Shown: positions 2 to 20,437 of the stretch, piece after piece
How the letters are laid out: every line of letters starts with the position of its first letter
How positions within the stretch are numbered: position 1 is the stretch's first letter
Assembly (NCBI GenBank): GCA_040756875.1
Contig: JBFLYH010000004.1
Span: forward strand, 1-20,437
DNA: 20,437 nt
Reading direction: 5' to 3'
Source: a candidate division FCPU426 bacterium
Lineage (GTDB): Bacteria > Oederibacteriota > JAAXVQ01 > JAUVAV01
The notes under the pieces: model-generated
What the model was told of the DNA's origin: nothing
What the model saw: the letters and a program-made list of their open reading frames with translations, nothing else
Databases searched by the model: none
Position numbers and translations under genes: made by a program

Positions 2-3000
2 CGCGGTCTGCGCCTTCTCGCCCTCGGCTTTCAAGGCGCGCAGCATGGCTTTCATCAGGTCGCGCTCCGCCTTCCGGCTTTCCGGCCTGGCCGCGTACCT
101 CAGGTACGCCTGCACGATCGGGCTGTCACCGCGCTGCAGCAGCGCGCCGAACGCCGTCTCGCTCAGGCCCAACCCTCCCACCACGCTCTGCCAGTAACCC
201 ATGGGATCGGCCTGCATGGCGAGCATTTGCATGCGCCGCGACGGGATCAGATGCATCAGGCGGGTGAGAACGGTCAGCCTGGGCCGCGGTACGGCCGTCA
301 TCTGCTCGATTTCGCCCGTATAGGCGCGGGCCACGACGTTCTCAGGCAACTCGGTCTTCAGCACGTCCGCCGCCTCCAATGCCTGTTTGACCGGCGCCGA
401 CACTTCGTACACCTGCGGGTTCGCCAGGTCCACGCCCTGAAGCTGAAGAGTGGTTACCCGGCCGGTCTTCACGCCGATAATGTTGCGAGACAGATCTTCG
501 CCGATCGTGAATACCTCGGCTTGCTCGGCGCGTGCTTGCCGCGCCAGTTCTCCCCTCAGCGCCAGGCCATCCGCCTGTTCCATGAGCCCCAGGGTCCCGG
601 TCGCCGTGCCGCGGATGGCGGTCAGCACGCGTTCGGCCAGTTCCAGCCGGCTGACCAATCCTTCCACGCCCCGGCGGCCACGCAATCCGGCCAGGGCCTG
701 TTGCACTGCAGCCAACTGCGCCTGGTTTGCAGCCGGCATGGATTGCACGTACACTTCCTGTCCGGCTACGGCCGCAACCGTCTCCACGCGCCGGGCTGCG
801 GCGTTCGCGGAAATGGCCTGTTCGCCTGCGATCAACCGGCTGACCACGCCGTTCGCCACCAATTGCCGCCGTGAAGCCTCCAGCTGCTGGCCTTCGCGCG
901 TCAGTTCGCGCAGCACGGCGGCCAGGCTGCCAGGAGCCACTCCCTGCAACTGTGAGGCAATCCGCATGACCGTTGCCAGGCTCGGCTCCGCGCCTTGCTC
1001 CAGCTCCTGCACCAGCGCATCTTTCAAGGCTTGCAGGCTTTGGTCAGCAGCCAGGTTTTGGGCGCTGGCAGCTTCGCGCAGGTATTCGTCAACCAAACCC
1101 GTCAGCTCCATGGCCGTTACGCCCACCTTCTGGCGCGTCGCCTGGTGCCAGGCTGCCGTCAGTTCACCGGCCAGCAGATTGTCCACGGCCGGCGCTTCCG
1201 CCTCAGCCGGCGCGGCCAGCGAAGGCAAACCAAAGGTTTGCGCCACTCCGTCCCACCGGCTGGCTTGATAATATTGTTCGGCCTGATAACCAGCGATCGC
1301 GCCGAAAAGCATGGCCTGGGTCCGGTAGCCCAGCCTGGCCAACGCGGTGCGCAGGGTGCCGTCCGCGGCGGGCATGGGATCAGCCATCTTGCGCAGCAGG
1401 CTGTCCGGCACGAAAATGCTCGCCCATTCGCCATGATCCGCAGCCTGATAATTCTCCTGATAGGCCCCCAGCAACTGCCCGCGCAGCAGGCGCTGCCAGA
1501 AACCACCCAGCTCCGACAAAGGACGGAACCGGATCTGCTTCACGTTGTATTCCCGCGCCGTGATCCGGTCCGGCAGCACCAGCGTCCGTTTGATCGCCTC
1601 AAACCGCGGGCTCAGATCGTCCACGGCCCTCGCGTCCGCGCGGACCCCGGCGAACACTGCCACCACGGTCTGCAGCAGGGCCAGCCCTGCCAGCACCACT
1701 GCCGCCAGCGAACGCACGGGCAGCCTCAGGTTGAGGTTCCCGGTCCCGCGCCCATCGGTCACGAACAAGACGGTCCGCAACCCGTAGTCCAGCAGCCGCC
1801 CCGGCAGGCTCCTCACCCCGCGGATCGGACGGTTCACGCCTTCAGGCAACACTTCCTGCACCCGCTTCAGTTCCGTCTGCACTGCCTGCCCGGCGGCCGT
1901 GGTTTGGGCCGGGGTTTCCGCAGCCTGGCTGGCCAGGACTTCGGCCGGAATCCGGGTGTCGATTTGCACCGGCGCAGCCGTAACCCCCGGCCTGCCTTGC
2001 GCCGCCTGCCAGCGTTGCACCAGGCCTTGCAGTCCCGGCAGCATCGCCAGCATGCCGGCGATGTCGTTCTTAAACTGCTCGTGGAATATGATCCTTTCGG
2101 CTTCCCGAGGATGATCCCGCTGCAGAATGTCCATGGCCGCCGGATTCGCATTGATGGCGTTCGACCAGGCGATCGCGTCCCAGCGGGCCTGGCGTTGCAA
2201 TTCAGCCATCGCCGCGCCGGGAATCGCGTTCACCCAGGCACGGTAGGCCGGCCCGTCCAGCCTCAGGGCGTCGAAACTCGGGTGGTCCGTCTTCCCTGCG
2301 CCGGCCCAATACACCTGCAACTGGGCTTCCAGCATGGCGTCGCGCACAAAGCGGCCCGTATTCAGGAATCCCAGCGCCCCGACGGCCAGATATCCGCCGG
2401 ACAGCGCGGACAAGGTCATGCCCAGCAGGCTCAAGGCCGTGTTTTCCGCGCCCAGTCCGAGGCTGACCGAAATGCCGAACAGCCCGATCGCGCCCACGGC
2501 CGCCACGCCGGCTGCGATATAACCCCACAGCGCCCGGAAAGGATGGGGCCGGTTGAGATAACTCAGCAAAGCCGGCAAACTGATCAGCGCCGCGCCGGCG
2601 ATAATGACCGTGACCGCGGCCACTCCCAGGCCGCCTGTGACCACGGTGCCGATCACGCCGGCCAGGACCAACCCGAAGCCGGCCAGGGCGCTCCATAAAG
2701 TGACGCGCGACCGGGCGTAGCCGCGGTCATCGAGCCGGGCATCAGCCGGACGCCGGCCGGTCTCCCGGACCGCCGCCTCATGGCCAAAGAGCGAGCGCAC
2801 GTAGTACAGCGGCCCCAGCTCAAAGGTGACCTTGGAAAGCAAGTCCGGCCTGGTGGCCTGCACGTGCCGCAAATAAGCCAGGTTGGGCATGGGCGTGTCA
2901 TTGCCGAACAACGCCGCCCCGTGGCTGGCGATTTCGGAACGGAAGCGCGGATCCGTGTTGGTGATGTGCAGCCAGCCGATGATGTCTTGCATGCTGTCAT

Positions 3001-6000
3001 ACCCTTCCAAAACCCGCGCCAGTATTTCCGCACGCAGCTGATCGCGTTCGGCCGCGGTTTTGGCCTGCATGAATTGCCGGCTCAATTCCGGGTGGCCTTC
3101 CACGATCCAATGCCAGGTGTCGAAAACGATCTGAATGGGGACCGTCGTGCCCGGATGCTTGGCCGCCCAGGCGTCCCGCCAGGCCCGCACTTCGGCCACG
3201 CTGGCCTGGAACATGCCCAAATCGCGCCCCTGGGTCAGTTCGAACACCGGCTCAATCAGCAGGCTGATGTTGTTGGCCACGGCCCGCTCGGCCACGGCCA
3301 TGAGCAGCTCCATGCGGCTCTTGCCGGTCAGGCCCTCTTCGCGGGCGAAGATCTCCAGGAACGGGCCAAGCAGCTCGGTATGGATGATCATCTTCGCTTC
3401 CTCGCCCTTTTCAAACTTGCGGTTGATCAGGGGATAGAGGAGCTCGATATGCGTGTCATACGACACGCCGTGCAGGGTCTGGATCTCCAGCTTTCCGCGC
3501 CGCGCCAGGCGTAAAGCCACTTCCGGCTGGTTGCCGTCGTCGTAGATCTCCGCGCGTTTCAAGCCCAGATACCGGCTGGCCACCCACAGGTAGCTGCGCA
3601 GGAAGGCCGGAGTCAGCCACCGCGCCAAGCGCAGAATCGTGGTGTTTTGCACGGAATGCAGGATCATGGTCGGACTCATGGAGATCCCGCCGCGCTGGAA
3701 AACGGTCCGCAGCATTTCGCGGTCCGAAGCGGACAGCGGGCCTTCTTCGTCAGTCTTGGGATAACGGACTTTCAACTGCGCCTGGCGGGTCAGGTGCCGG
3801 CCCAGCAGGACCAAACCGGCCACTGCCAGCAGGCCGGCGGCCAGACCCGTGGCGCCCACGGCAAAGGCCAGATACATCGCGGCAAAAGCCAGGGCTATGG
3901 CGCCCATGAGCATGACCGTGCCCGTGCTGGCGGCGCGCTGTTCGCCCAGAGCCGTGTCGCTCTGAATGGCCTGCACCGCAGCCTGCGGCGAAGCTTCCAG
4001 AACCGTCCGGTTGACAATGCCCGGATTGTCCGCCATAACCAGGCGGAAGATCTCGATTTCCGGAACCAGCCCATAGGGATCGATCACCCGGCCGCGCTGC
4101 AATTCCACGGGCAGTTTCATATCATCCAAGCGGGAGTTGCCGAAATAGAACCGCTGGACCATGCCGTTCATTTGCCGGTAGAAATCCGTCAGCAAGGGCA
4201 GCAGGCGGCCGCGAATTTCGGATTCCGTAAGCCCTTCGGCGATCCACTGCTGGATTTCAGGCCCGTACACATCCATGGCCAAATGCCAGGGATTCAGGGT
4301 GATGCCGATCGGCGCCTGGGCCGCGGTCTTGCCCGGATGGCGCGCCAGCCAGGCATCCTGCAGCTTGCGCACATGGGCGATCAGGTTGCGCATGTAATCC
4401 GCGCGCGAACGGCCGGTTTCATCCAGCAATTGTTCGCTCCGCCAGCCGATCGTGGTCTCCATCAGGATGACGACATTGGCTTCAGAAGCGCGGTCCAGCA
4501 GCGCCAGTTCCTCTTCGCGCACATCGGCTTGCAGGGCGCGGTCCGTGTGGAAGGCCAGGAAGTCGCGGCTGTCAGCCACGCCCGGGCCGCCTTGTTTCAT
4601 GGAGAAATAATCGTCCCAATTCGGCCAGTGAATATTGTAGGAAACCCGCCCGGGATGCTTCATACCCAAGACGCGGTCAATGCTCTCCACCACCGGGTCG
4701 CCCCAGGCATGGTGGTAGCCTGCCGGCTCGGGCAGCTCGCCCTTGGCGATCATGTCCAGCTGCTCAGGCGAGGCGAACACTTCCATGTTGCGGGAACCGG
4801 TGAAGTATTTGTAATAATCGAGGTAGGTGTGAATCATCCAATTCAACGGCTGGCCGTGGACGCGTTCGCCGACAAAGCCGAACGCCACCGTGGAGGCGCT
4901 GGAACGCCCCAGCATGAACTTGGCCAGGGCCGAATCAGACAGTTGCTGGTAATTGCCGGCTGCCAGGGCCGCGCGTTCCTGCGGCGTGTAATCCACCACC
5001 GGCTGGCGCATGGCCAAGCGCCCCAAGCCCGTGAACAGCACCGCCACCAGAAGGCCGGCCAGGAGCACGGCTTTCATCCGCCGGGTCATGAAAACCACGG
5101 TACCGATCACGACCCCGAGCGTTACGACCACCGCGGCCACTGGAATGGAGATCGCGCCGGTCAAGGCCAAGGCCACGCCAGCCACGATCAGGGACGCTCC
5201 GCCCAAGACAGCCGCCAACTCCGCACTGATGAACCCGGCCTCGCCCCTGCGGGTAGCAGTGGTCTCGCCCCGGTCCTTCGCCGCCTGGGCTTCGCTGTAG
5301 CTGTAGACAATGCGGCCCACTTCATCGATGCCTCTGACGATGCCGTGGTATCCATTGGCTTTTCCCTTCGGCTGCAATAAGTAGCCGATGATTTCCCGGA
5401 TGTATTTGGATGGCTTTTTAAGGTCGACGGCCAACGTATAGATGGTAACGACCTGACCTTGCTTCATTTTTTCATAGACTTGTCTAGCTGTCTGGATAAA
5501 ACCGCTTGTCCGGGTCAAAAGAAACGCCGGAACAAACTCAGGAGCCATGTCCAAAAAGAAACTGGCGTCACGGGTCTTGTCCCACTCATTGGTTTTTTGG
5601 TAAGGGACGGAAGCCAAGGCTGCCAGCAGGTTCGCTTGCCGCAGAGCCGCCGTGGCGATTCCGCTTACCTCCCTGTAGGTTTCCATCAAAATGTATTTAT
5701 TCCTGGCCACTTGCTCGACTGCCAAGGCCGCTTTCATTTCATCATCCGATATGACTTGTTGTTCCACCAATCCCCGGAAGACCCGCGCCAATTCCTGTTT
5801 GCGGTCGCCTGCCAACGAGAACAAGCTCGCCAGGTAAGCTATGGCCTCGCTCCGAATGAATAATTCCCGGTTGGCCAAAGCCTGGACAAATTCGTCACGC
5901 AAGGACTCCATGCCTTTTTCGTCCATGCGCGGCAAGGTCTCGGCCAAGGTCCGATAGTATTCCTGCCAGCCTGCCTTGCGTTTCGCGGTGTCCAGCACCT

Positions 6001-9000
6001 GATTCAGTTTTCCCAATGTCGTTTGGGGCGTTGTCTGGCGCTTGCTGGCATAAACCACGCTGTTATCCGGCAGCTTTCTGCGGGCAAAGCCCGCCATGCC
6101 ATCTGCAATCGCTTTTTCAGAAACCAAGTAGGCGGTTATTTTATAGAAGCTATGCCATGGGACAACCAGGAACAATCCCATCTGACTGATTTCCGACCTG
6201 ATGATCCTCGTCAATTCTTCTTCCGTCACTTCTCTTCCCGCTTCCATATGGGCATCCAAAAGGCGGGCAAGGATGTATCGGCCGGCTGCTTCCTCGTCTT
6301 GTTCTATTTGTTCCTGGGCAAGGTGCGTCAGAGATCCCAGCAGCATATGGATGGCGACATTCTGCGGCGACCCCAGCTTGCCAAAGCTCGGATCCATATA
6401 TCCCCGCATCATGCCCATGCCGGCGGCCAAACCTGGCAGCCAGTTAACCAGCCGGAAATTCCAAAAAGCATGCAGGGCAAAAGCCAGCACGGCACCTGCC
6501 ACCGCGCCCAACACCGCACCCAGGCCCGGCAGAACCACACCGCCGAGGACCAATCCTCCCAACACTAATGCCACCATGCCCAGTGCCAAGATCGACTGCT
6601 GGATAATATGCCGCATGGTCCGCGGCACTTCCCGGTAGGTTTGAATATTCCGGTCATAAATCAGTGCCGTTTTACCGTGCAACGCCGAAAATGAAGCGAC
6701 ATAGGCGCCGCCCAACAGTGCCAGCCCGGCAGCCAGGTTCTCCGGCGAAATCGAGAAAAACAAAGCCAGGCCCAGACCGATCACCGGCAGCATGCCCAGG
6801 TGTTCCTTGGCGATTTTCCCCCAGGTCGGCCGGACGGCTGCCGCTGCCGCCGGTACGGCCGCCTCGGCCGCCGGCGCCGCCTTGAGCCCGGCTTCCATCT
6901 GCCGCAGAATGCCGCCCTCCGCGATCCCCCGGTTCACGATCTCGTCCGCGCGCGCCTGCGTGTTCGCGTTCGAATAGATCCTCAGCTGCGGCGCGTTCCC
7001 CGACGGCCTCACGTGCGCCACGTCGTTGTTCGCAAAGCGCACACGCACCCCGTCCACGAAGTTCACGCTCACCACGCCCGCGAACCCGTCCGCTGCCGTG
7101 AAATACTGCTCCAGCTCCGCCTTCTTCCCCTCCAGCTCCACCCGCAGCGCGGCCCCGGGAAGCAGCTCCTTCACTTCCCCGTCGAACATCTCCACATACA
7201 CCGTCCCGTCCCGGAACATCACCTGCCGCACGTACGGGTCGCTCGGCTTCAGGTTCCTCAACAGCAGCTGGCTCGCCGCCACCGGGAAGTTGTCCAACAG
7301 CCCTGCCTGCGTCGAACGCTGCGGCAGCGCCGCGAAGTCCGCCGACACGCTCCCCGCCTTCGCGCCCGACAGCAAGGCCACCACGATCGGCAGGATCGCG
7401 TCACGCGTCGGCAACGCCGCCAGCTTCTTCCCGAACAGCTCCACCTCCGTCGCCGTCAGGAATCCGCCGTTCACTTCCCACGACACCACCACCGGCGACG
7501 CCCCCTTGTACTGCTTCTCCGCCGACGCTTTCATCACCTTCACCGCCGCGTCCATCTCCGCGATCACGTACGGCGACCCGATCTGCGTCTGCTGCAGCTT
7601 GATCCCCGCGCGCCCCAATTCCGTCGCCACCGAATCGTTCGCGCTGATCGGCACCGCCGCGAAATCCGCCCCCAGGTACTTCGCCACCACGATCCCCAGC
7701 TCGTCTCCCCGGTTGAAACGCCCGTTCTCGTCCACCACGAACGGACGGTCCGAATCCCCGTCCGTCGACACGATCGCGAACGGCCGGTGATCCTGCGCCA
7801 ATGCCCAGAAATTCTCCCGCGTCTCCTGCGTCACGTTCTCCGTGTCCTTCGGAACGAATTTCTCGCTCCGCTGCACCGCCACCACGTCCGCGCCCATTCC
7901 CTTCAATATCCGCACCAGCATGTCACGACCCACTGCCGAGTGCTGTTCCACCACGATCTTCTTTCCTGCCAGTGCGTCCTTCGGCAACACGTCCAGATAC
8001 CGCGCCACGAACTCCTCTTCCGCCGCGTTCGTCCCCGCCGGCAGCGCCACTGCCTTCCCACCCTTGAACATCCCGTTCTCCGCGAACAGGCTCTCGTCCG
8101 CCGAACGCGTCACTTCCTCCGAACGCGCCTTGGCCACTGCCGCCAGGATCCCCGTCTCGTCCGCCTTCAGCACCTCGCCCTGCGGCTTGTTGAACTTGAT
8201 CCCGTTCCGGTCGTCCGGAATGTGCGACCCCGTCACCATCACGCTCGCCAGCCCCCGCTGCATCGCGTAGTACATCACCGCCGGGCTCGGCACTTTCCCC
8301 ACGTTCTCCACTTCGCAGCCCGCGTCGCGGATCCCCTGCGCCACTGCCTCCATGATCCGGTCCGTCGAGCTCCTCAGGTCCCCGCCCACCACGATCCGGT
8401 CTCCCCGCTTGATCTGCCCCGTCGCGATCAGGTACTCCACGTACCCCTTCGTGTTGATGTACACTTCCGCGTCCGTCATGTCCGTGACCAGCCCGCGCAG
8501 ACCCGACGTCCCGAACGCCAGCGGCCGGTTCTTCGTCCAGGCGACGACCTGCGCCACGTTGCGGTTCAGCCAGGCCCGAACGCGCTGGGCCAGGCTGGTT
8601 ATCCCCAAGGTTGCGGCGACGGCCATCAAAAGCATCACCGTGCCGAAAAAGATCGTGGTGACCACGTCGCCGTACACCATCACCGGATCGGTCGAGCTCA
8701 CATTGGCATCGTAGCCCGCCATGAAAGCCAGACCCCAATAAACCATCGTCGTGACAAACGACAACACCGTGATGCCCGACATCACAGAAGCGGCGTTTTC
8801 CGCAATCGCGCGGACCGCAGCCAGGCGAGGCATTCCCGGCGCCAGCGCATTCCTGCGCTGCATAAGCGCCACGGTCAGGGTGCCGGCCAAGGCCAGCATC
8901 CCGGCAAACATCAGCACCGCGCCGCCCACAGCCGCTGCGCCGGCCAGGGTCATCGCTAAATAAGCGCCCGCGATCATCGCGCCCAATCCTGCCACGGACA

Positions 9001-12000
9001 GGCCCAGCGTGCTCATGAACCCCAGCGTCGCAAACCCCGCCTCGCCCCGGCGGCCGGCTTCCGGCCGCATCCGGTTCTGCTGCAGGATTTCAGCGACCGG
9101 CAGCTTGTACTTGCCTTCCCTGAAGAAATATTTCATCCGCGCCAGGTTCTTGCCCACCGTGCTGACCGCGAAGCGCTTCAGCGGCAGGGCCGCGATTTGC
9201 GCGCCGAGGGCTTCGGCCGCAGCCGGATCGCTTTCGGCCAGGCGCAGGGGCTCTTTGGCCTGGAAGTCTTCCATATATTGGTCCACCGTATCCATGCGGA
9301 TGCCTTCGCGCTTATAGAACGCGGCCATCTCTTCAGCCACCTGCGCTTCGGATTTTCCGGTCGCTACCGCCTCCAGCTTGGTCACCGTCTCCTTGAAGGC
9401 GTCGATGGCCGCTCCGTGCACTTCGCGGTCCGCATTGATCATGGCCACCAGTGCGCGCAGCAGCAGCCCGCCCAGGCCCACCCAAATCCGGTCCACCAGG
9501 CCGCGCAGCAAACCGTCCCGGGTCGCGCCCGGATAACCGAGGATGTAGTCCCGGCGCTGCCGGAAGACCCGGAAGAGCATCTCGCTGTTGTCCTGCGGCC
9601 TGACCGTGGATTCGGCTTCCGAAGCCAGCCAGGCGATCGGCGCTTCGACAATGGTTTCGCCCAGCAGTTTCAACTGCGTTAGCAGGGCGGTGTCAATGGC
9701 CATTTGCTGAGGGTGTTGCTTGAAGGTCGATTGCATGCGGCGAAGGACATCAGGCGTGAACATTTTGAATCCCCGCTGCGTGTCCGTGATCCGGCCGACG
9801 ATCGGAATCGTGGAGCGGCTCAGCCGAAGCAGGCCGTTGGCCAGCAGGTTGTACACCAGGCTCTTGATCTTGCGGCCTGTGGATTTCGAGGCCACCACTG
9901 AGTCCGAGGCCTCGCTGGTTCCCACTGCTGCATGCGCGCCCCGGCGGATAGGATCCACCAGTAGGCCGATTTGCATCAAATCCGTGGAAATGTCGGCATC
10001 TGTGTAGGAAACGTACGATTTCCGACCGGGGGTTTCGGCGGCCAGCTGCTCGCCCATCCACAGCATATACTGGATGGACCCGCCTTTGCGGCTGAGGCTC
10101 TCGTTGGCGTATTCCGCCAAAACCGGCGCACTGCCCGGCTGCGCAGCTTCGCGCCGGATGGCGTCCTGCACGCGCACCACCTTGAACCTGAGCTGAAGAT
10201 CGGCTTCCAGGCTCCAGGAACCGAAGCGGTCGCCGGTCGCCCGGCCGGACTGACCGAACAGGGCTTCCAGGAAGACCTGCATCATTTCGCCGGAATGGAT
10301 TTCGATGCCCTGGTCGGACTTGGGGCGCACGGTTTCGAACTCGTCGTCGCTGATGACGAATTCCACGCGCAGATTGGGGTTTCGCTGCAGCAGCTCCTGC
10401 ACCTGGGTGATCTTCATGCGCAGGAAGTCCTCGTTAAAGAGACGCATCTGTTCGCCGTATACTGCAAATGTAATGTAGATCGTGGTCGGTTCGGTCACCT
10501 GCAGCAGGCGCAGCATGGAATCCGCGTTTTTTGCCGCAGCCTTGAACCAGTAGGAAGAGGAAGCGGAGCGGGCCGCGCCGGCGATCGCGTCAAAACCCAC
10601 CGTTCCTTCGGCCGCATGATACAAAAGCGCACTCATCACCCGCTGGCCGTTCAATTCTGCCAGGTTTTTCTGGTCAAACAGGTCCGTGTCCGTCAAGTGC
10701 TCGCGCATGAAGGCCACAGCTTCCTGGTGTCCCTGTTTTTGTTTTTCCTCGAGGGTCTTGTAGAACCGGGTCACTTGAAGCTTGCGGGCCATGTCCGCAG
10801 CCAGGCTGGTTTTGGCCGCGTCGTAGGCGAACAAATTCAGGGCGGGTTCGGCCAGAATCTGGATGGCATTGACCGCCTCGGTTTCCGAAGCGGATGCCAG
10901 GGCTTGGGCCTGGATTTCATCCACGGTAGCGCGCGCGATCAAGGCCGCGGATGCGAGCATCTGTTCCCTTTTCACCCCGTCTGTGCTGGCATGTTCCAGG
11001 GTGAGGTCCTGGATAATATCGACAAACTGCAAGGCTGGATTCTGGTAAGCAGAGGCCATGAGGCTGGCCAATACGGCCATGGCTTCGCCTTCGCTGACGA
11101 ATTCACCGGCTGCCAGCGCCTGGTCAAAGGCTTCCATGAGCTGCGCGAACTCCGCGGGGTCCTTCATCTGCCGGACCTGCCAGCCCAGATCATTGGTCGC
11201 CGCCTTTTTCGCGGCCTGCATGAACACCTGCTTGTCCACTTTTTCTTTCTTGCGTTTGGCCTCGGCCACCAATGCATCATAGTGGCCTGAGGTCAGGTTC
11301 CTGAACCGGATCGCGCCTTCCGTACCCGGCGTTTCCGGTTCCGCAGGCGTGCGCCCCAGCAGGCGGGTGAGCGCGCGACCGATATAAAAACGCAGAGGGT
11401 GGGATTGGTTGAACGCCCAGGCTTGCAGGACTTGGAAGACCGCGTCAATCAGGATCTGCGCGATGGAGCGGATGGGCAGGATCAGCATCCCAACAGCCAT
11501 GCTCATGGGAATGACGTTTTGCAGGACGAAATTGTAAGCAATGGCAATGGGCGCCTTGGCAATGAAGAAATCCATGAACTTCTTGCTTTCGTTCTTGAAG
11601 CTGAACGACTTGAGGGATTTTGCGAAAAAGGTGGTGATGATCCAATACTCGAACATCATCACCACCGTGCCCGCGCCTAAAACCGTGCGCACCCATTTGA
11701 CCGCCCAATCCATGCCTTGCAGGGCCTCGGTCCACCCCAGGGCCTGCGCCAGGCCCGAGGCGCCCCAGCCCGCAGCCGGCGCGGCCCAGTCGATGAAGTT
11801 GAAGATCAATTGGGTCTGGATGCCAAAGGTCAGGCCGATGAGCGTGGCCATGACCGATTGTTTCAATTTATATTCCGGCCGGTCGGATATTTTCTGGCCG
11901 ATGGCGTCCGTAATGCCCGCAATGGCGCCGCCGGTCAGGGCGGACAGGGCGTACGGTTCGATAAGGCGCCAGAATCCGATCAGGTTTTCGGTGCTGAACG

Positions 12001-15000
12001 TTTCCGTATTGCCGAGCAACAGCGCCGCACCCACGGCAATGGCCAGGGTGGCGCCCACGCTGATGATGGCCAGCATGCGGCGGGAGGCGAAGTTTCCTTG
12101 TTTGACCGCCTCGGCCGCGGTCTGCGGCCCGGCGGCAGGGGCTTCCTCGGCTTCGTATTTTTTCGGCTGCGCGGCTGCCATAATGAGCATACTGCCGACA
12201 GGCACTGTCTCCGAAGACCCTTCCACGCTTTGGCTCCACTGGTAGAGCCGCGCGAAATCACCGCTATGCAAAATAATTCGGATGGTATTAAAAAGTCTGA
12301 TTTTGTCGCTGTATTCCGATTTTTCCACCACGGATGCGGTTTTCGGCAACGCGGCGCCATGCTCTACGATGTCGAGACAGACGGCTTCGAAGTGGGCGGC
12401 TGCCTTGGCGGTCAGCAGGCCGTTGGCCAGCGCGCTGCGCACCCAGGAAATGCCGGTGAGCGCCTGATGCTGCAGCTTGGTCTGGCCCGGGGCAAAATAG
12501 CCGCCCACCACGGGATTGAGGCGGTCCACCACCTGATCGAAATCGTTCTTGGCTTGGGTGAAATCCCGCATGCCAATCATAATGGGCTTAAAACGGGGCA
12601 CCTGGGCCAACTCTGGAACCGGCGCCAGGTTGATGTCCATTTCCCGCAGAAGCTGGTTTTTAACCTCGTCTTTTTCCGCAAAAGTGCCTTTCTGGCTGGA
12701 GGCTTCCAGGATGCGGTTGATCAGGTCCAGGTTCAGATCATTGGCCGAGATGTTGGTCAAAGCCAGCATGGCTTCGAAAGAGGTCACGTCCTGGACCATG
12801 AGGTTGATCTTGATGCCCAGCGCCTTGGTTTCGCAGGTAATGGGCAGGATGGCCATCATGAACCGTCCCACCAATTCGTCGCGGTAAATCCACTCGGCCT
12901 GGCCGATGGCGCGGATGCGCCCTGCCACCTGCCGTTCCAGTTGCACGCGCCGTTCCAAAACAGCCTGCGGATCGTCCTGATGGGTTTGCGCGAACTGCAG
13001 CCAGGCATGGTAAGCCTGCTTGATCTCCCGGTCGCGATTGACTGCATCCATGATCGGATCGCGGCCAAGGTGGTTGGCGTTGAAATCACGCTGCAGGATC
13101 ACCATGGCCACGTTTTGGGGGACCGTGAGGGTCTCGCCGCGGCTGTTCGTGAAGGGCACTTGTTTGGTGTAGTTGCTTTTTTCCACAAAACGCGCGCCGC
13201 CCGCCACTTCCAGCAGGTGGCCGCCTGCCTTCTGGGAATAGTGGAACAAGGATTGCTTTTTGTCTTCGAATTCAATCTGCAGGCCCTGCACCCGGTCTTC
13301 CACCTGGGTTTGGAATGCACGGATGGCTTCGAAAATAAGGTCGCGCTGGGCGGTTTTGTCCTTTTCCGCGGAAGCGCGCTGCACCAACTCCATGGCCGCG
13401 TCGCGGCCGGCTTCCAGGGCGCGCTCTTCGGGGGCGAGCTCCAGCACGGTCGAATCCGCGAAAAAGACGCGTCCTTCTCCCACTTTAATCACTCTTTTGC
13501 CGTTGATGTGGACAACCCGGTTGGCTTCCCATTCGCGTTTGATGTCATCCAGCCGGTTGTAGAAAACCACTTCCTGCGGCGTGACCAGAGGCACGAACGG
13601 CGACTGGCCGGTGCGGATCAAGTACGACATGGCACTGGTAGTGAAGGGATCCCCCAGGTCGTCGCCCTGGATGTGGTCCCAAATTTTCCCCTGTTCGATG
13701 ATGCTGGCCAGGCGTTCCGCGTTGCTGACAATGGCCCGGACCAGGAAGCCGTGTCCGCCCACATCCACCACGGATTCGACGAAGTGGCCGGCTTCATCCA
13801 CAAAATGCACCACCACCTGGGTGAGGATGTCCTTGCCGCTGCCCAGCATGCGCTCGATGGCCGTGACCGTGGGCATGCCGCCGATCCATACGGCTCCGGG
13901 CGCGCGCGACGCCAGGAGCGGAATGGTCAGGCCCACATAATGGTAGCCGCCGATTTGGGCCAGCTCGTAGGTGCCGGCCCCCCGGCTTTCCCAGTAAGCC
14001 TTGAAAGCTTCCACCTTTTCCGGCAGCAGCTTGAAAACCGGGGTGATCATTTTGTTTTCCTGGAAAAAGTCCTCCAAAATGCGGCTGCCTTGCCCGGCAA
14101 TGCCGATTTCAGACACTGCCTGGTGTTCGGTCACCTGGACGCCCTGGGCCAGAAACTGCCGGCTCAAATCCGGTTTCTGGGTCACCTCCAGGAAATTGGC
14201 TGACACCAGATCGCCTTCGGCCAGTTGTCCGTCCGAACTGACCACAGTGCCCCGGTTGTTGACTTCGGTCCGGATCTGGGAGCGGGCTTGGGGGCGGGCG
14301 AAGAAGTCCATCAGCAGTTCCGGATAACCCATTTTCAATTTAGTGAAGTAAATGAGCAATTGCTGAGCCTGCCGGCGAAGATCGCGCGATACGGCCATCG
14401 TGGGCAGATAGGGCGCCATCTGCAAGAACATTTTGACGCGTTCCATGGCCGTGGTGAAGGTGTCGTAATTCAGGGCTTGTTTGCTGGCCAGGATGGCCAG
14501 GGCGTCCAGATAGGCGGTGAATTGTTCCTCGCTCAGGCTGCCGGCCGTGGCCAGAGTCAGGAGATTGGTCTGCGCGATTGCCTCCAGCGCGGTTTGGATC
14601 TGCTCCGGAGTGTACGCCACTTCAGCCACACCCGGCAGTTCGGTAATAATGCGCAGGCCCTGGGGGACCTGTTTGATGACCTGGCCGGCAGTCACGTCCT
14701 TCACGCCCAGGAAAGCCCGCAGACCGGGATTGCCCAGGAGCACTTCGCTGTCCAGCAGGTTCTCCAGGGGCAGGCGCTCGTGGTTGACGCCGTCAACCGT
14801 CACCCAGCGCGAACCGAGCTGGAAGTAGGTCTTGCCTTCCACTTCCAGAAGGCTGCCCTGCAGGGTGCGGCCTGCCAGGCTGAGGGTGAACGGCCGCTGT
14901 TTTTTCACGAATTGGGACATGGCCTGGCCCTGGACCGGTTCAGGCTGGCCCATGGCAATGCGAATGCGCACGCGCTTGCCGTCGACGGTCGCCTGGACGG

Positions 15001-18000
15001 TATCGCGGTTTTGCCATATGGATACTGCCACGACCACTGCCAGCACTGCTGCCCCTACGCCGATCAGGACGCCGGACAGCAAGGTGACCGTGCCGGCCGT
15101 AAAAATCATGCTGATGCCGATGGCGGCAGTGACCAGCCCGGCAATGACCGAGGCGGTTTCCACGGTCGCAAACCCCGCCTGGCCCCGACGGGCGGTTTGC
15201 AGACGGCGGTCATGGACTTCGATAATCCTCCCTATGGCCCGTTTGATTTCCGAGTCGCTGGATGTTGCCGCCAGTCTCTCCAAATCCGGCCGCAACACGC
15301 CGTTGATTTCCCCCATCGGCAGCAACTTCGTTTCCATTTCTGCCGCTATGCGTTCCAGGCTCTTCAGCATCGTTTGCCGTATCTTACCGCCTATTTCCAA
15401 GCTGGTGCGGAAAACCCGCAAAAACAAATCGCCCTCCGTCAGGAATTTGCCTTGGGAGTTGCCTATTTCTTCCCAAATCTGCTCAATCATGCCTGTCACC
15501 CAAGTTTGCCGCCGCCCAGCCGATGTTCGAGCAATAAACAAGAGGTCGTCCAGGAGATCGATCTTATTCGAAAGCCTTTGCTGACTCAGAAACATCTCAG
15601 CTTGAATCCGGGCATTAGCGGCGCCGTTTTGGACAAACTGTTCCACATTTGTACGGAACTCCGCTTCACTTCCCCGCTCCCGGTATGGAGGTGTTTCCAG
15701 ACGGTTGTCATGGATCTTCAAAACCCGCGCAGCCGACCGGCGGACTTCCGGATCATTCGCCATGGCCGCCAGCCATTCCAAATCAGCCCGCAACACGCCA
15801 TTGATCTCTCCCATTGATATTATTTTAACGTCGATTTCGGCTGCAAGGCGTTCCAGGTTCGCCAATACCGCCAGTTGCGTCCTGCGGTCCATGCTCATGC
15901 TGGCGCGGAAGGCCGTTAGAATTTTCTCGTTCTTTATAAAATACCGGCCTTTCAAATCCGCCGCTTTTTCCCAGGCCTGTATGACCATCCCGGCAAACCA
16001 CGCCTGCTGGGTTTTGCTCGTGGTTTGAGCTAAAAATGACAGGTCGTCGACCATGTCCATCTTGCCGGGAACATCCTGCTGGGCGTAATAAGCCTCCGCG
16101 GAGGTTTTCGCACCCGTTTCGGACGTTTCGGCATATCGCTGGACATCCGCCAAAAATTGTTTCTCTCTTTCATACATAACTTGGTAGCATTTGATTACCA
16201 TGTCATCCGTCGCATCGCGCTGCAAGGAGTTGATAACCAACGCAGGCAACGCTAACATGAGCAATCCGACGATCAGAATTGAATTGCGCGTTTTTTGATC
16301 TTTTGCAGACACCACCCTCATTACAATTCGCAGCGCAATGACAGTCACCACCAGGGCGCCGCCGATTAAAAGAATTGTTCCTGTCAACAACCCGGTTGCC
16401 CACAAAGTGTAGCCACCGATGCCCAAAGCCGAGAGAATGGCCAGTAAGCGTGCCGCGCTTATTTGGATGAACCCCGCCTGGCCCCCACGGGCGGTCGTGG
16501 TCTCGCCCCGGTCCTTCGCCGCCTGGGCTTCGCTGTAACTGTAGACGACACGGCCCGCTTCATCGCTGCTTTTAACGATACCAAGAAATCCCTTGGCTTT
16601 GGCTTTCGACTGCAATAAATACTCCAAAACCGTTTCAACATAGTCGGACGATTTTTTCAGCTCCTCTGACACGGAGTATTCAGTGACTGCCTGTCCTTGT
16701 TTCATTTTTTCATAGATTTGACTGGCCATCCGTACAAATTTGCCCGTGCGTGATAAAATGAACATCGGAATAAACACTATGTCTAGTCCATCAAGAACGC
16801 CTTCCTCGTTGATCACTGTATACCCTTCAGGGTTGGAATAGGAGGCGGAAGATAAGCTGCCCAGCAAGTTTGTTTGCCTCATGACGGCAGAGGCTGTGTC
16901 ACGCACCTCGCGGTAGGTTTCCAGCAAAACATGCCGATTCCGTGGGATTTGTTCGACTGCCAACGCGGCCTTCAATTCGTCTTCCGACAGGGCTCGGGTT
17001 TCCACCAAACCACGGAAGAGGTTGACCAATTCCTGCCTGCGGTCGCCTGCCAGCGCAAACAAACTCGATAAATAAGCCAAGGCCTCATCCCGGATGGTCA
17101 TTTCCCGATTAGCCAGGGCCAGGGCAAACTCGTCCCGCAGAGATTCCAGGTTTTTCGCGTCCATTCCCGGCAAGGCCTGCGCCAGCGCCTGATAATGCTT
17201 CTGCCAACCCGTGCGGCGCGTTTCAGTATCCAGCACTTGATTCAGCTTCCCGGGCATGGTTTGCGGCGCCGCCTGGCGCTTGCTGGTGTAAATCACAGTT
17301 TGATCCGGAAGGGTTTTACGTTCAAAGCCTGCCATCCCTGTTTTCGCCGCTTTATTTGAAATTAAAAGCTTGGCAACTTCCCCGTAATGATTTTCCGGAA
17401 TGAGGGAGGATAAATCCATTTGCCGGGTTTCGGATTCAATAGCCGCGAACAAGGTTTTTTCCGTGATTTGTTCACCCGCCGCCAAGTGAGCATCCAACAA
17501 ACCGGCCACGAGAAACCGGGCAAAGATTCTCGCCCGGTGCAACTTCGCTTCCTCTGCCGCTTCCTCCGCCATTTCCCCTACTCGATCCATCATAGACATG
17601 GTGACATGCTGGATCGATCCCATTTCTCTGCCGTAAACCGCGGGATTCAAGTATGTTTTTGTCGGATCCCAATACGGGCGCAGAGTTCCCGCGGCGATAT
17701 CAGGCCACCAGCGCATCAGGCGGAAATTCCATCCCGCATGCAGAAATAAAGCCAGCACAGACCCGGCGAGAGCGCCCACGACCGCACCCACGCCCGGTAA
17801 AAGCATTCCTCCCAGGACCAGCCCACCCAAGGCCAGGGTCGCCATTCCCAGTGCCAAGATCGACTGCTGAATAATATGCCGCCTGGTCCGCGGCACTTCC
17901 CGGTATTTTTGTTCTTTCCGGTCATAAACGAGCACTGTTTTGCCGTGTAAGGCCGCGAACGTGACGGCATACATTCCGCCTATAGCCGCTACACCTTCAA

Positions 18001-20437
18001 CCAGATATTCCGGCGACGCCCAATAGAATATCGCTAAACCCAAGCCGATGACTGGCAACAATGTCAGGTTTTCCTTGAGAATCTTTCCCCAGGTCGGCCG
18101 GACGGCTGCCGCTGCCGCCGGTACGGCCGCCTCGGCCGCCGGCGCCGCCTTGAGCCCGGCTTCCATCTGCCGCAGAATGCCGCCCTCCGCGATCCCCCGG
18201 TTCACGATCTCGTCCGCGCGCGCCTGCGTGTTCGCGTTCGAATAGATCCTCAGCTGCGGCGCGTTCCCCGACGGCCTCACGTGCGCCACGTCGTTGTTCG
18301 CAAAGCGCACACGCACCCCGTCCACGAAGTTCACGCTCACCACGCCCGCGAACCCGTCCGCTGCCGTGAAATACTGCTCCAGCTCCGCCTTCTTCCCCTC
18401 CAGCTCCACCCGCAGCGCGGCCCCGGGAAGCAGCTCCTTCACTTCCCCGTCGAACATCTCCACATACACCGTCCCGTCCCGGAACATCACCTGCCGCACG
18501 TACGGGTCGCTCGGCTTCAGGTTCCTCAACAGCAGCTGGCTCGCCGCCACCGGGAAGTTGTCCAACAGCCCTGCCTGCGTCGAACGCTGCGGCAGCGCCG
18601 CGAAGTCCGCCGACACGCTCCCCGCCTTCGCGCCCGACAGCAAGGCCACCACGATCGGCAGGATCGCGTCACGCGTCGGCAACGCCGCCAGCTTCTTCCC
18701 GAACAGCTCCACCTCCGTCGCCGTCAGGAATCCGCCGTTCACTTCCCACGACACCACCACCGGCGACGCCCCCTTGTACTGCTTCTCCGCCGACGCTTTC
18801 ATCACCTTCACCGCCGCGTCCATCTCCGCGATCACGTACGGCGACCCGATCTGCGTCTGCTGCAGCTTGATCCCCGCGCGCCCCAATTCCGTCGCCACCG
18901 AATCGTTCGCGCTGATCGGCACCGCCGCGAAATCCGCCCCCAGGTACTTCGCCACCACGATCCCCAGCTCGTCTCCCCGGTTGAAACGCCCGTTCTCGTC
19001 CACCACGAACGGACGGTCCGAATCCCCGTCCGTCGACACGATCGCGAACGGCCGGTGATCCTGCGCCAATGCCCAGAAATTCTCCCGCGTCTCCTGCGTC
19101 ACGTTCTCCGTGTCCTTCGGAACGAATTTCTCGCTCCGCTGCACCGCCACCACGTCCGCGCCCATTCCCTTCAATATCCGCACCAGCATGTCACGACCCA
19201 CTGCCGAGTGCTGTTCCACCACGATCTTCTTTCCTGCCAGTGCGTCCTTCGGCAACACGTCCAGATACCGCGCCACGAACTCCTCTTCCGCCGCGTTCGT
19301 CCCCGCCGGCAGCGCCACTGCCTTCCCACCCTTGAACATCCCGTTCTCCGCGAACAGGCTCTCGTCCGCCGAACGCGTCACTTCCTCCGAACGCGCCTTG
19401 GCCACTGCCGCCAGGATCCCCGTCTCGTCCGCCTTCAGCACCTCGCCCTGCGGCTTGTTGAACTTGATCCCGTTCCGGTCGTCCGGAATGTGCGACCCCG
19501 TCACCATCACGCTCGCCAGCCCCCGCTGCATCGCGTAGTACATCACCGCCGGGCTCGGCACTTTCCCCACGTTCTCCACTTCGCAGCCCGCGTCGCGGAT
19601 CCCCTGCGCCACTGCCTCCATGATCCGGTCCGTCGAGCTCCTCAGGTCCCCGCCCACCACGATCCGGTCTCCCCGCTTGATCTGCCCCGTCGCGATCAGG
19701 TACTCCACGTACCCCTTCGTGTTGATGTACACTTCCGCGTCCGTCATGTCCGTGACCAGCCCGCGCAGACCCGACGTCCCGAACGCCAGCGGCCGGTTCT
19801 TCGTCCAGGCGACGACCTGCGCCACGTTGCGGTTCAGCCAGGCCCGAACGCGCTGGGCCAGGCTGGTTATCCCCAAGGTTGCGGCGACGGCCATCAAAAG
19901 CATCACCGTGCCGAAAAAGATCGTGGTGACCACGTCGCCGTACACCATCACCGGATCGGTCGAGCTCACATTGGCATCGTAGCCCGCCATGAAAGCCAGA
20001 CCCCAATAAACCATCGTCGTGACAAACGACAACACCGTGATGCCCGACATCACAGAAGCGGCGTTTTCCGCAATCGCGCGGACCGCAGCCAGGCGAGGCA
20101 TTCCCGGCGCCAGCGCATTCCTGCGCTGCATAAGCGCCACGGTCAGGGTGCCGGCCAAGGCCAGCATCCCGGCAAACATCAGCACCGCGCCGCCCACAGC
20201 CGCTGCGCCGGCCAGGGTCATCGCTAAATAAGCGCCCGCGATCATCGCGCCCAACCCTGCCACGGACAGGCCCAGCGTGCTCATGAACCCCAGCGTCGCA
20301 AACCCCGCCTCGCCCCGTCCGGCCAGGGGCCTGGGCTGCTCGGGTTCGACCACCACGCGGTCCCCCGCCTGCCGCACCCGCACGCCCTTGGTCCCGAACA
20401 CCGCCACCACTCCGTTGTCCGTCGTCACCACCGTGCG
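2..20437 (-). CDS. Giant multidomain membrane protein, partial at both ends (>=6,812 aa in window), with sugar-nucleotide and glycosylation enzyme domains separated by TM bundles
   Basis: Manual translation of the frame starting at 20437 runs RTVVTTDNGVVA... to ...KAEGEKAQTA with no stop seen. None of the minus-strand ORFs in the track lies in this frame, as expected if it never closes. The longest plus-strand ORFs (995, 2780, 3647, 6800, 9971, 11717, 14225, 18281) share its codon register, i.e. they are antisense shadows. Recognisable enzyme motifs fall in this frame throughout. Confidence 0.96.
2810..3680 (-). other. Domain: xylose-isomerase-like/AP-endonuclease-2 TIM barrel (sugar phosphate isomerase/epimerase family)
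   Basis: AEIY, QTLHG, MIIH, AVANNISLLIEPV, IQIVFDTWH, IGWLHITN, SHG, VTFE: the typical E, DxxH, HxxD-like and E metal-site pattern. Confidence 0.7.
3995..4900 (-). other. Domain: xylose-isomerase-like/AP-endonuclease-2 TIM barrel, degenerate copy
   Basis: YNIHWP, LAFH, VVILMET, PIGITLNPWH, RFYFGN, TVLE in barrel order. Shares DAWxAxHPG...PIxIxx[D/N]xWH with the downstream barrel. Confidence 0.55.
5219..5251 (-). other. Internal class III signal-peptide-like motif RRGEAG|FISAE followed by TM helices
   Basis: Basic residues, G(-1)|F(+1), E(+5), then LAAVLGGASLIVAGVALAL. Confidence 0.6.
5231..6818. repeat. Diverged continuation of the duplicated cassette, copy A (CPBP-like TMs, helical region, wHTH-like units)
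   Basis: Protein aligns with 16469-18086, e.g. YREVPRTxRHIIQQSILALGM, GKLNQVLDT, ESLRDEF, KAALAVEQ, YEKMKQGQ, VYSYSEAQAAKDRGETT, with many substitutions and a net 30-nt indel. Confidence 0.92.
6431..6812 (-). other. Domain: CPBP/CAAX-protease-like intramembrane segment, degenerate (copy A)
   Basis: FSALH (6677-6691) and HAFWN (6458-6472) in TM helices. The EExxxR motif is absent (IAKEHL). Confidence 0.45.
6819..9049. repeat. 2,231-bp near-identical direct repeat, copy A (4-TM bundle + PMM + Ala/Pro linker)
   Basis: Matches 18087-20317 at an in-frame offset of 11,268 bp. The duplicated ORF-track translations are identical. One synonymous mismatch noticed (8987 t vs 20255 c). Confidence 0.97.
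6881..8524 (-). other. Domain: phosphomannomutase, ManB-type alpha-D-phosphohexomutase (copy A)
   Basis: Same sequence as copy B: FGTSGLRG, TGSHIP (Ser codon 8225-8227), DGDSDR (7745-7762), WEVNGG, RPSGNAP. Confidence 0.95.
9020..9052 (-). other. Internal class III signal-peptide-like motif RRGEAG|FATLG followed by TM helices
   Basis: Same motif without E+5. It coincides with the repeat boundary at 9049. Confidence 0.55.
9545..10490 (-). other. Domain: GT2 glycosyltransferase, dolichyl/polyprenyl-phosphate beta-glucosyltransferase-like
   Basis: ITFAVYGEQMRL, EFVISDDE, RKGGSIQY, YTDADISTD (DxD at 9992-10000), ITDTQRGFKMF (cf. DTQCGFKLF), AIDTALL, IVEAPIAW. Confidence 0.85.
11400..11945 (-). 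other. Domain: Mpv17/PMP22-like multi-TM segment
   Basis: ALTGGAIAGITDAIGQKI resembles Mpv17/PMP22 TM1 (lT.g.l...gD.iaQ.i). It is followed by IGLTFG...IFNFID, further helices and YNFVLQNVIP. Confidence 0.45.
12500..14130 (-). other. Domain: divergent UDPGP-family (UDP-glucose/UDP-GlcNAc pyrophosphorylase-like) nucleotidyltransferase
   Basis: Family motifs in the expected order: IAGQGSRI (cf. AGGxGTRL), GGHGFL (PxGHG), HIQGDDLG (NxDNLG), KAGGHL...FVEK (KGG...llE), FNANHL (FNTNN), LP...GIKINLMVQD, RDFTQAKN (RFxPVK). Confidence 0.65.
15158..15190 (-). other. Internal class III signal-peptide-like motif RRGQAG|FATVE followed by TM helices
   Basis: G|F with E(+5), then TASVIAGLVTAAIGISMIFTAG. 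Confidence 0.6.
15200..16170 (-). repeat. Two tandem diverged ~166-aa alpha-helical (HEAT/ARM-like) repeats
   Basis: KMDMVDDLSFLA...LERLAAEIDVKIISMGEINGVLRADLEWLAAMANDPEVRRSAARVL vs KIDLLDDLLFIA...LERIAAEMETKLLPMGEINGVLRPDLERLAATSSDSEIKRAIGRII. The MGEINGVLR blocks are 498 nt apart. Confidence 0.85.
16457..16489 (-). other. Internal class III signal-peptide-like motif RGGQAG|FIQIS followed by TM helices
   Basis: Same motif without E+5. It marks the end of homology of cassette copy B. Confidence 0.55.
16469..18086. repeat. Diverged continuation of the duplicated cassette, copy B
   Basis: Homologous to 5231-6818 (same conserved blocks). Confidence 0.92.
17702..18080 (-). other. Domain: CPBP/CAAX-protease-like intramembrane segment, degenerate (copy B)
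   Basis: Hydrophobic helices with FAALH (FxxxH, 17945-17959) and HAGWN (HxxxN, 17726-17740). The EExxxR motif is absent (ILKENL). Confidence 0.45.
18087..20317. repeat. 2,231-bp near-identical direct repeat, copy B
   Basis: Matches 6819-9049. Identity breaks at 20318/9050 and at 18086/6818. Confidence 0.97.
18149..19792 (-). other. Domain: phosphomannomutase, ManB-type alpha-D-phosphohexomutase (copy B)
   Basis: FGTSGLRG N-terminus; GDLRSS; phosphoserine loop TGSHIP (Ser codon 19493-19495); metal loop DGDSDR (19013-19030); sugar loop WEVNGG; phosphate loop RPSGNAPQLR. Confidence 0.95.
20288..20320 (-). other. Internal class III signal-peptide-like motif GRGEAG|FATLG followed by TM helices
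   Basis: Same motif. It coincides with the repeat boundary at 20317. Confidence 0.55.
20342..20437 (-). other. Domain fragment: probable C-terminal beta region of a mannose-1-phosphate guanylyltransferase (ManC-like), truncated by the window edge
   Basis: RTVVTTDNGVVAVFGTKGVRVRQAGDRVVVEP resembles the ManC C-terminal pattern (lVatiGvedlvvVdtgDavLV) and precedes a ManB cassette. Only 32 aa are visible. Confidence 0.45.

Follow-up and report, generated by a model that had tools for sequence, protein, structure and literature searches.

A short in-frame peptide at module junctions of a giant membrane-anchored gene from a candidate division FCPU426 bacterium

Giant proteins that are anchored in the membrane by many transmembrane (TM) segments are known from Omnitrophota. 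According to the main texts of two preprints, these bacteria carry many giant open reading frames (ORFs) in a small genome, and the multi-thousand-residue, many-TM products bear cytoplasmic sugar-metabolism domains that include phosphoglucomutase/phosphomannomutase (PGM/PMM) domains (bioRxiv 10.1101/2023.11.21.568195, 10.64898/2026.06.07.730766). The main text of the 2023 preprint describes cleavage of giant proteins as an open question with unknown cleavage points, and places type II secretion system (T2SS)/Tad-like systems and class III signal genes in the vicinity of giant genes (bioRxiv 10.1101/2023.11.21.568195). Here we analyze a giant gene of this type on contig JBFLYH010000004.1 of a candidate division FCPU426 genome (assembly GCA_040756875.1), referred to as the window, i.e., the whole stretch of 20,437 bp, together with a 16-bp dispersed repeat, AACCCCGCCTSGCCCC, that lies at the junctions between the modules of this gene. 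The gene shares the size, the TM content and the sugar-metabolism domains of the Omnitrophota cases and differs from them in its host phylum and in that its modules have no relatives beyond one order. Among the FCPU426 literature matches listed, titles and abstract openings indicate surveys.

In polymorphic toxin genes, short junction motifs such as VENN in CdiA and PxxxxDPxGL in Rhs precede the variable part. As in those genes, a short in-frame motif in the window borders exchanged, unrelated downstream modules, and DNA homology ends there. In contrast to toxin junctions, the window has neither toxin nor immunity modules, its motif recurs several times within one gene and stands ahead of TM anchors, and orphan cassettes were not observed. 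Gene conversion between repeated modules of one gene is likewise familiar, for example from modular synthases and repeat surface proteins. The window resembles such cases in that a 2.2-kb tract has been homogenized to a single mismatch between old paralogous modules and ends with the homology; it differs from them in that one tract edge is a 7-residue motif common to non-homologous modules. The junction motif of the window thus combines known themes, namely modular giant proteins, junction motifs and intragenic conversion.

A repeated 16-mer and the peptide it encodes

The window lies entirely inside one stop-free open frame of 6,812 codons on the minus strand (2..20437), which is open at both contig ends and therefore encodes a protein of more than 6,812 aa; the corresponding giant ORFs of relatives measure 8,376 aa and 9,342 aa. 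An earlier note on this DNA had described the 16-mer as a repeat, and its positions were borne out: AACCCCGCCTSGCCCC has exact copies at 9033, 15171, 16470, and 20301 and a fifth copy, one mismatch away, at 5232, every copy being on the plus strand. The longer identities that it had reported are also correct, since positions 15171-15196 and 16470-16495 agree at 25/26 nt and positions 15165-15187 and 9027-9049 at 22/23 nt. The chance expectation for the 16-mer was a mean of 0.10 across 100 dinucleotide shuffles, and no shuffle reached five occurrences. A scan of the complete 3.22-Mb genome allowing at most one mismatch returned seven places, i.e., the five of the window and two unrelated one-mismatch matches on contigs C1 and C3, and the reversed pattern gave no match in the same scan. 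The copies at 9033 and 20301 belong to the two copies of a 2,231-bp repeated tract described below, so that the number of independent copies is four, not five.

Read as its reverse complement and in frame, the 16-mer becomes CGG GGC SAG GCG GGG TTy and encodes R-G-[E/Q]-A-G-F. All five copies lie in a single reading frame on the coding strand, and hydrophobic helices follow directly after each of them. In a six-frame translation of the host genome, G[EQ]AGF was matched 38 times, and only the five sites of the window combined the peptide with the TM context. We refer to this peptide as J. The five sites, given here with a slash between the Gly and the Phe, are as follows.

20301..20316, minus strand: J(A1), residue 42 (a minimum, as the frame is open), ..AGRGEAG/FATLGF.., followed by a 4-TM bundle
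16470..16485, minus strand: J(C), residue 1319, ..ARGGQAG/FIQIS.., followed by TM helices
15171..15186, minus strand: J(D), residue 1752, ..ARRGQAG/FATVE.., followed by a TM hairpin, with Glu at +5
9033..9048, minus strand: J(A2), residue 3798, ..GRRGEAG/FATLGF.., with a downstream side identical to that of J(A1)
5232..5247, minus strand: J(E), residue 5065, ..TRRGEAG/FISAE.., one mismatch (GCC for GCG), followed by TM helices, with Glu at +5

In an alignment of eight J sequences, the Gly preceding the Phe is the sole invariant column, and RR or R stands ahead of it at all five window sites.

Along the coding strand the gene follows the order X-J-A-B-J-C-J-D-J-A-B-J-E. The earlier note had placed the motif at module junctions, and this was confirmed by comparisons inside the gene and with relatives. 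Downstream, sites 42 and 3798 are identical (33/33 nt), and upstream they are unrelated (9/36), while sites 1319 and 5065 agree at 33/36 nt upstream and are unrelated downstream (11/33). Between the window and the related genome G027, collinearity across the D2 part of module D stops two residues ahead of RRGEAGF, and a second relative, G022, retains the arrangement D2-J-TM. The edges of duplications, insertions and conversions fall at J because J is the only sequence that otherwise unrelated modules have in common. The evolutionary module is J plus TM helices plus a soluble domain, and the host protein is giant, membrane-tethered and rich in sugar-metabolism domains. The modules and their parts are:

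20321..20437, minus strand: C-terminal tail of an upstream module, X, homologous to the segment preceding J(A) in G027
18087..20317, minus strand: first copy of the near-identical repeat tract (J, TM bundle and PMM domain; module A1)
18200..19786, minus strand: PGM/PMM domains I-IV of the first copy, assigned by Pfam
16490..18082, minus strand: module B1, a TM cluster plus an unassigned domain, paralog of B2 and diverged from it also at synonymous sites
15191..16489, minus strand: module C, a 433-aa orphan with 25/26-nt direct repeats containing the motif on both flanks
9053..15190, minus strand: module D (D1 + D2, ~2,046 aa), no Pfam match, orthologs in G027, G022, G031, and G025
6819..9049, minus strand: second copy of the tract (module A2), represented by a single Logan contig
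6932..8518, minus strand: PGM/PMM domains I-IV of the second copy, assigned by Pfam
5252..6817, minus strand: module B2, paralog of B1
2..5251, minus strand: module E (at least 1,750 aa), no Pfam match, tail 79-80% identical to a paralog on contig C6

Module A consists of a 4-TM bundle and a PGM/PMM domain, in which domains I (89 bits), II (48), and IV (32) exceeded their cut-offs and domain III remained below it (18.2 vs 20.7), both copies being alike. Pfam searches with sub-pieces of modules B, C, D, and E returned nothing above cut-off, and the seven longest ORFs on the plus strand of the window had no Pfam family at E≤0.01. Module C is built of two ~158-aa repeats that are 38% identical (E 5e-47), and neither the giant-length proteins of a 5.8-billion-protein database nor the 99 phylum genomes yielded a homolog of it. 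We considered whether a degenerate relic of J lies between these repeats and rejected this, as the stretch aligns with the N-terminus of repeat 1. Ahead of the homolog of X in G027 lies a stretch that looks by eye like a sugar-1-phosphate nucleotidyltransferase; no family search was run on it.

Homologs of the module queries were confined to one order of the 99-genome phylum and always lay in giant frames. In G027 the order is J-A-J-D ... J-E. In G022 a glycosyltransferase-like (GT-like) segment leads into J-TM...A, A is joined to D1, and a J-like site opens an insert of ~700 aa before D2. The PMM module of G022 (contig C28, locus L017, ~residue 5373 of the 9,342-aa ORF) is fused to D1 with neither the junction motif nor the TM hairpin, and J plus TM is thus dispensable between the PMM module and D1. 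The G027 junctions ahead of A, D, and E read RRGQRGS, RSGEAGF, and GRGEGGF, and NSEAGF is found elsewhere; the modules themselves are 52-57% identical to those of the window. The codons differ from the window's, as in GGC GAG GCG GGA TTT and GGC GAG GGC GGG TTT. J-like sites with other codons were also present in giant ORFs of G022, G032, and G023 and, within the host genome, on contigs C3 (GQGGF) and C1. The C1 site (C1:784628, residue 7983 of the 8,807-aa ORF C1:760691-787111) reads RTNEAG/FTTPE and is followed by a TM hairpin; its RTNEAGF ends in GAG GCC GGT TTC, and the module downstream is 27% identical to the tail of the window. In loci L015 (G031:C279) and L022 (G025:C283), an HExxH-like segment (LIHELAHRRQ or ILRHELYDHLL) was noticed ~60-100 residues upstream of the D1 match, after a TM cluster and just before D1; this segment could be a small metalloprotease-like element.

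Larger databases were searched as well. Residues 1250-1830 matched only the query itself among giant-length proteins. Among shorter proteins, J+TM+D1 matched only a partial G025 protein, J with the 4-TM bundle had no match, and these searches thus revealed no module standing alone with J at its N-terminus. The profile of the J alignment had one match among 1.84 billion representatives, P0003, a low-complexity repetitive ORF that we judged unrelated. A search of genome contigs for related loci yielded none with the single protein and one with alignment A2.

Because relatives and another giant gene of the same genome keep the peptide with different codons, the peptide appears to be the selected unit. 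We therefore consider it probable that the 16-mer represents the codons of a conserved peptide, R-[R/G]-G-[E/Q]-A-G-F, which opens the membrane anchor of the modules, and that this peptide rather than a dedicated recombination site is under selection. Judging from hydrophobicity patterns, J would lie at the cytoplasmic face of the membrane, where RR may act as a positive-inside signal ahead of the invariant Gly, and the Phe would open the first helix.

Codon identity, gene conversion and recombination

Several observations weigh against selection on the peptide as the whole explanation. J stands before only five of the ~11 TM clusters in the window, and the proposed topology derives solely from hydrophobicity and the cytoplasmic nature of PMM. 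Some synteny breaks occur without J, namely the A/B boundary and the A-D1 fusion in G022. Alternative joins were examined in Logan contigs of three runs from one study, i.e., in assembled contigs only. The remaining points concern codon choice, for which the two A copies were counted once (four independent sites) and the expectation was derived from codon usage within the gene; all of these tests were post hoc. Identical codons were used in 21/32 pairs of identical residues, compared with 13.1 expected (P=0.018). The sites flanking module C share the same codon at 7/7 comparable residues, including the rare CGT (P about 0.001, uncorrected for the choice of the best of six pairs). Given the peptide, the probability of the exact 16-mer is 0.7-1.4% per site, and three of the four independent sites carry it. 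Constraint at the level of DNA or RNA is accordingly possible, as is an active part of this identity in recombination.

The excess is similar in the G-x-A-G-F core (19/26 same-codon pairs vs 11.1 expected, P=0.014). Amino-acid constraint plus codon bias thus does not fully explain the DNA identity. The earlier note had pointed to the retention of GCG GGG as synonymous choices. This holds for GGG, which is unusual in the gene (21-26%), and does not hold for GCG, which is about as common as GCC: the two account for 42% and 38% of Ala codons in the gene and for 38% and 41%, respectively, once the repeat copy and the motif codons are left out. The excess is modest, and the J copies of this gene are probably related by recent shared descent, copying or short-tract conversion. 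An element acting on the RNA, in which the G-rich GAGGCGGGG would form a Shine-Dalgarno-like internal pause site upstream of every TM segment, would account for the excess synonymous identity, which is due mainly to a GGG codon in every copy, and for the location just before TM helices. The relatives and the C1 and C3 genes encode the peptide without the G-run, and we regard such an element as very improbable.

Gene conversion, which the earlier note had offered as one option, is acting in this gene. Positions 6819-9049 and 18087-20317 (2,231 bp) are identical except for a single mismatch at 8987, and the identity ends one base beyond the motif. Within the duplicated A-B block, synonymous sites are 100% identical in A, whereas the adjoining module B shares codons at only ~50-60% of identical residues. 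Both contexts of A are old, since X-J-A is common to G027 and D2-J-TM is common to G022; the identity of A1 and A2 therefore reflects recent gene conversion rather than a duplication of recent date. At J the homology ends, and so must the conversion tract. In Logan contigs of the probable source run, the tract is represented by one 2,231-nt contig with a depth of 114.6, compared with 49.7-57.8 for its flanks, and this doubled depth identifies the tract as a real two-copy repeat. An assembly artefact was considered as the origin of the 2.2-kb repeat and rejected, the depth being twice that of the four flanks. The part of the second tract copy that has no contig cover reflects only the single placement of the repeat contig, and the order of the window appears to be the sole path that uses each contig once or twice as its depth demands.

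Other repeats of the genome were seen as well. The window (2-210) and the end of contig C6 (~12760-12971) both stop inside giant ORFs with their last ~70 residues identical, and the two tails are 79-80% identical across ~625 aa. At window 1553-1889, two further contigs with depths of 54.3 and 58.3 align with 19-29 differences and are paralogous copies of the tail module from the same organism. Assembly breaks fall at repeats common to paralogous giant genes. Ongoing gene conversion inside a giant gene is hence documented, which explains why such genes break assemblies.

Conversion raises the question of whether J takes part in recombination as DNA. The in-frame identity of 16-26 nt could itself be the crossover point for short-homology or microhomology exchange, which would be compatible with selection on the peptide. 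Homology and synteny breakpoints lie exactly at J, 25/26-nt direct repeats flank module C, module order varies among the host, G027 and G022 with inserted blocks often starting with J, and codon identity among the copies exceeds expectation. Efficient RecA-dependent exchange also requires at least some 20-30 bp. Breakpoints would fall at J in any case, however, since homology ends there and only in-frame, module-preserving products survive. Furthermore, the four J sites of G027 share little DNA identity, yet the modules are equally shuffled in that gene. None of the eight joints listed in run X1 amounted to a supported alternative join, their sides being only 20-63 nt long. Two of them touch motif copies, one leading to 16471 (depth 20.3, side 21) and one to 20311 (side 30), and are of a kind flagged as unreliable. 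Runs X2 and X3 contained next to none of the window sequence. We thus consider a role of the J identity as a recombination substrate possible although unlikely. At window 16471-16493, the contig with a depth of 20.3 (genome ~56) matches ~21-23 nt at the motif and then continues into unrelated sequence; it may derive from a second organism or strain carrying the motif in another context. The sequencing run that holds the window sequence is labelled as a groundwater metagenome.

The earlier note had further proposed a site-specific crossover point, and this part of it found no support. A repeat dispersed over module edges, always in the same orientation, is what the target of a site-specific recombinase or the boundary of a mobile cassette might look like. 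Neither a recombinase nor a further gene is present in the window, whose contig ends inside the gene. The longest exact inverted repeat between -40 and +55 of each site measured 0-8 nt and differed from site to site, so that neither dyad symmetry nor inverted arms were detected. The motif is always in frame, is restricted to one frame of one gene and is absent from the rest of the genome, and conservation of the DNA independent of the frame was not observed: G027, G022, G032 and the C1 and C3 genes of the host keep the peptide with other codons. A recombinase target is therefore the least probable of the explanations considered and can hardly be entertained.

Resemblance to prepilin cleavage sites

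J might be an internal class III (prepilin-type) signal, at which an A24 peptidase would cut between Gly and Phe at the cytoplasmic face of the membrane and release TM-anchored enzymes from a polyprotein. J shares with class III signal peptides and A24 peptidase substrates the basic residues, Gly at -1, Phe at +1, the hydrophobic helix and, at some sites, Glu at +5, and it is nearly identical to the leader segment of the genome's own pilin. Unlike class III signals, J is internal, and its helix leads into more TM segments and cytoplasmic enzymes, not into a pilin globular domain.

The single N_methyl pilin of the host starts with MRSCRRPEAG/FTFIE, and 6/7 leader positions match RRGEAG/F. A strict pilin pattern applied across the host genome revealed no further typical pilins. 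Pilin leaders across the phylum follow [RK][RK]G[EQ]xG/F, e.g., RRGQAG/FTLVE. Of 227 [EQ]AGF occurrences in the six-frame translation, a hydrophobic 22-mer follows only three, namely the pilin, J(1752) and J(5065), and all three have Glu at +5. The RTNEAG/FTTPE site of the C1 gene, a third giant gene, is likewise followed by a helix, and the Gly that would occupy -1 is the only invariant column of J, with basic residues ahead of it. A profile built from J only also matched small pilin-like ORFs in other families of the phylum, whose N-termini are typical of type IV pilins (e.g., ARRGQAG/FTLVEIL and RRRGETG/FTLIEL). With a looser class-III-like pattern, three sites were found in 133,144 aa of giant ORFs, compared with 13 in 2,984,420 aa of other ORFs.

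A candidate enzyme is also present. The host genome encodes one A24 peptidase (PF01478, 66.3 bits), a 171-aa ORF adjoining Flp pilins. It lies in a Tad-type locus (C2:160670-163168) together with two Flp-like pilins (..KGQG/LVEY.., ..QGQS/LTEY..) and a TadE-like ORF, and it has both catalytic Asp motifs. When this peptidase and the J(1752) segment were predicted as a complex, the score was 0.00; this uncontrolled score is not used as evidence. The 2023 preprint fits such processing in that its main text leaves cleavage of giant proteins open and reports class III signal genes beside giant genes (bioRxiv 10.1101/2023.11.21.568195). In our literature searches, this preprint was the only relevant match for class III signal peptides paired with giant, and pairing prepilin peptidase with polyprotein returned nothing relevant. 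The word "prepilin" does not occur in the main text, supplements excluded, of either preprint, and the main text of the 2026 preprint contains none of "class III," "cleav," "junction," and "recombination" (bioRxiv 10.64898/2026.06.07.730766).

The profile comparisons point the other way. PF07963 N_methyl and the NCBIfam prepilin models matched 0/8 J peptides at E≤10. Hidden Markov models (HMMs) built from pilins only recovered the host pilin at ~1e-15 and no J site at E≤10. In hhalign, J and the pilin profile aligned in the correct register with a probability of 6.5% (P=0.0056). Glu at +5 is found at two of the four distinct window sites (1752 and 5065), the others having Gly or Ser, and the pilins with RRGExGF leaders were found via the J profile, which makes this part of the likeness circular. 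The J sites are internal and not N-terminal behind a short leader, homologs standing alone with J at the N-terminus were not found, and we know of no precedent for prepilin-type sites behind thousands of residues. On balance we regard cleavage at J as doubtful. The same caution applies to a broader scenario, which we consider rather unlikely, in which the giant gene encodes a polyprotein that yields sugar-pathway enzymes in stoichiometric amounts, each with its own anchor, and J serves both as processing site and as permissive point of module exchange.

Giant genes of the host and significance of the junction peptide

The host is a giant-gene-rich genome outside Omnitrophota. Its 3.22 Mb contain 28 stop-to-stop ORFs of at least 2,000 aa, which together comprise 133,144 aa or ~12% of the genome. 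The longest reach 12,551 and 12,450 aa, and C1:375288-412940 and C2:60456-97805 are examples.

Giant genes of bacteria have been recognized only recently and are largely unexplained, and whether their products act as one chain or as cut pieces is stated to be open in the main text of the 2023 preprint (bioRxiv 10.1101/2023.11.21.568195). J provides a concrete, short and testable boundary signal that defines evolutionary modules, marks swaps between genera and resembles the prepilin site of its own host. Even if J is only a topogenic cap, it offers a parsing rule for structure prediction and evolutionary tracing of these proteins. If prepilin-type processing at J were true, it would provide the cleavage points that are still missing from the picture of bacterial giant proteins.

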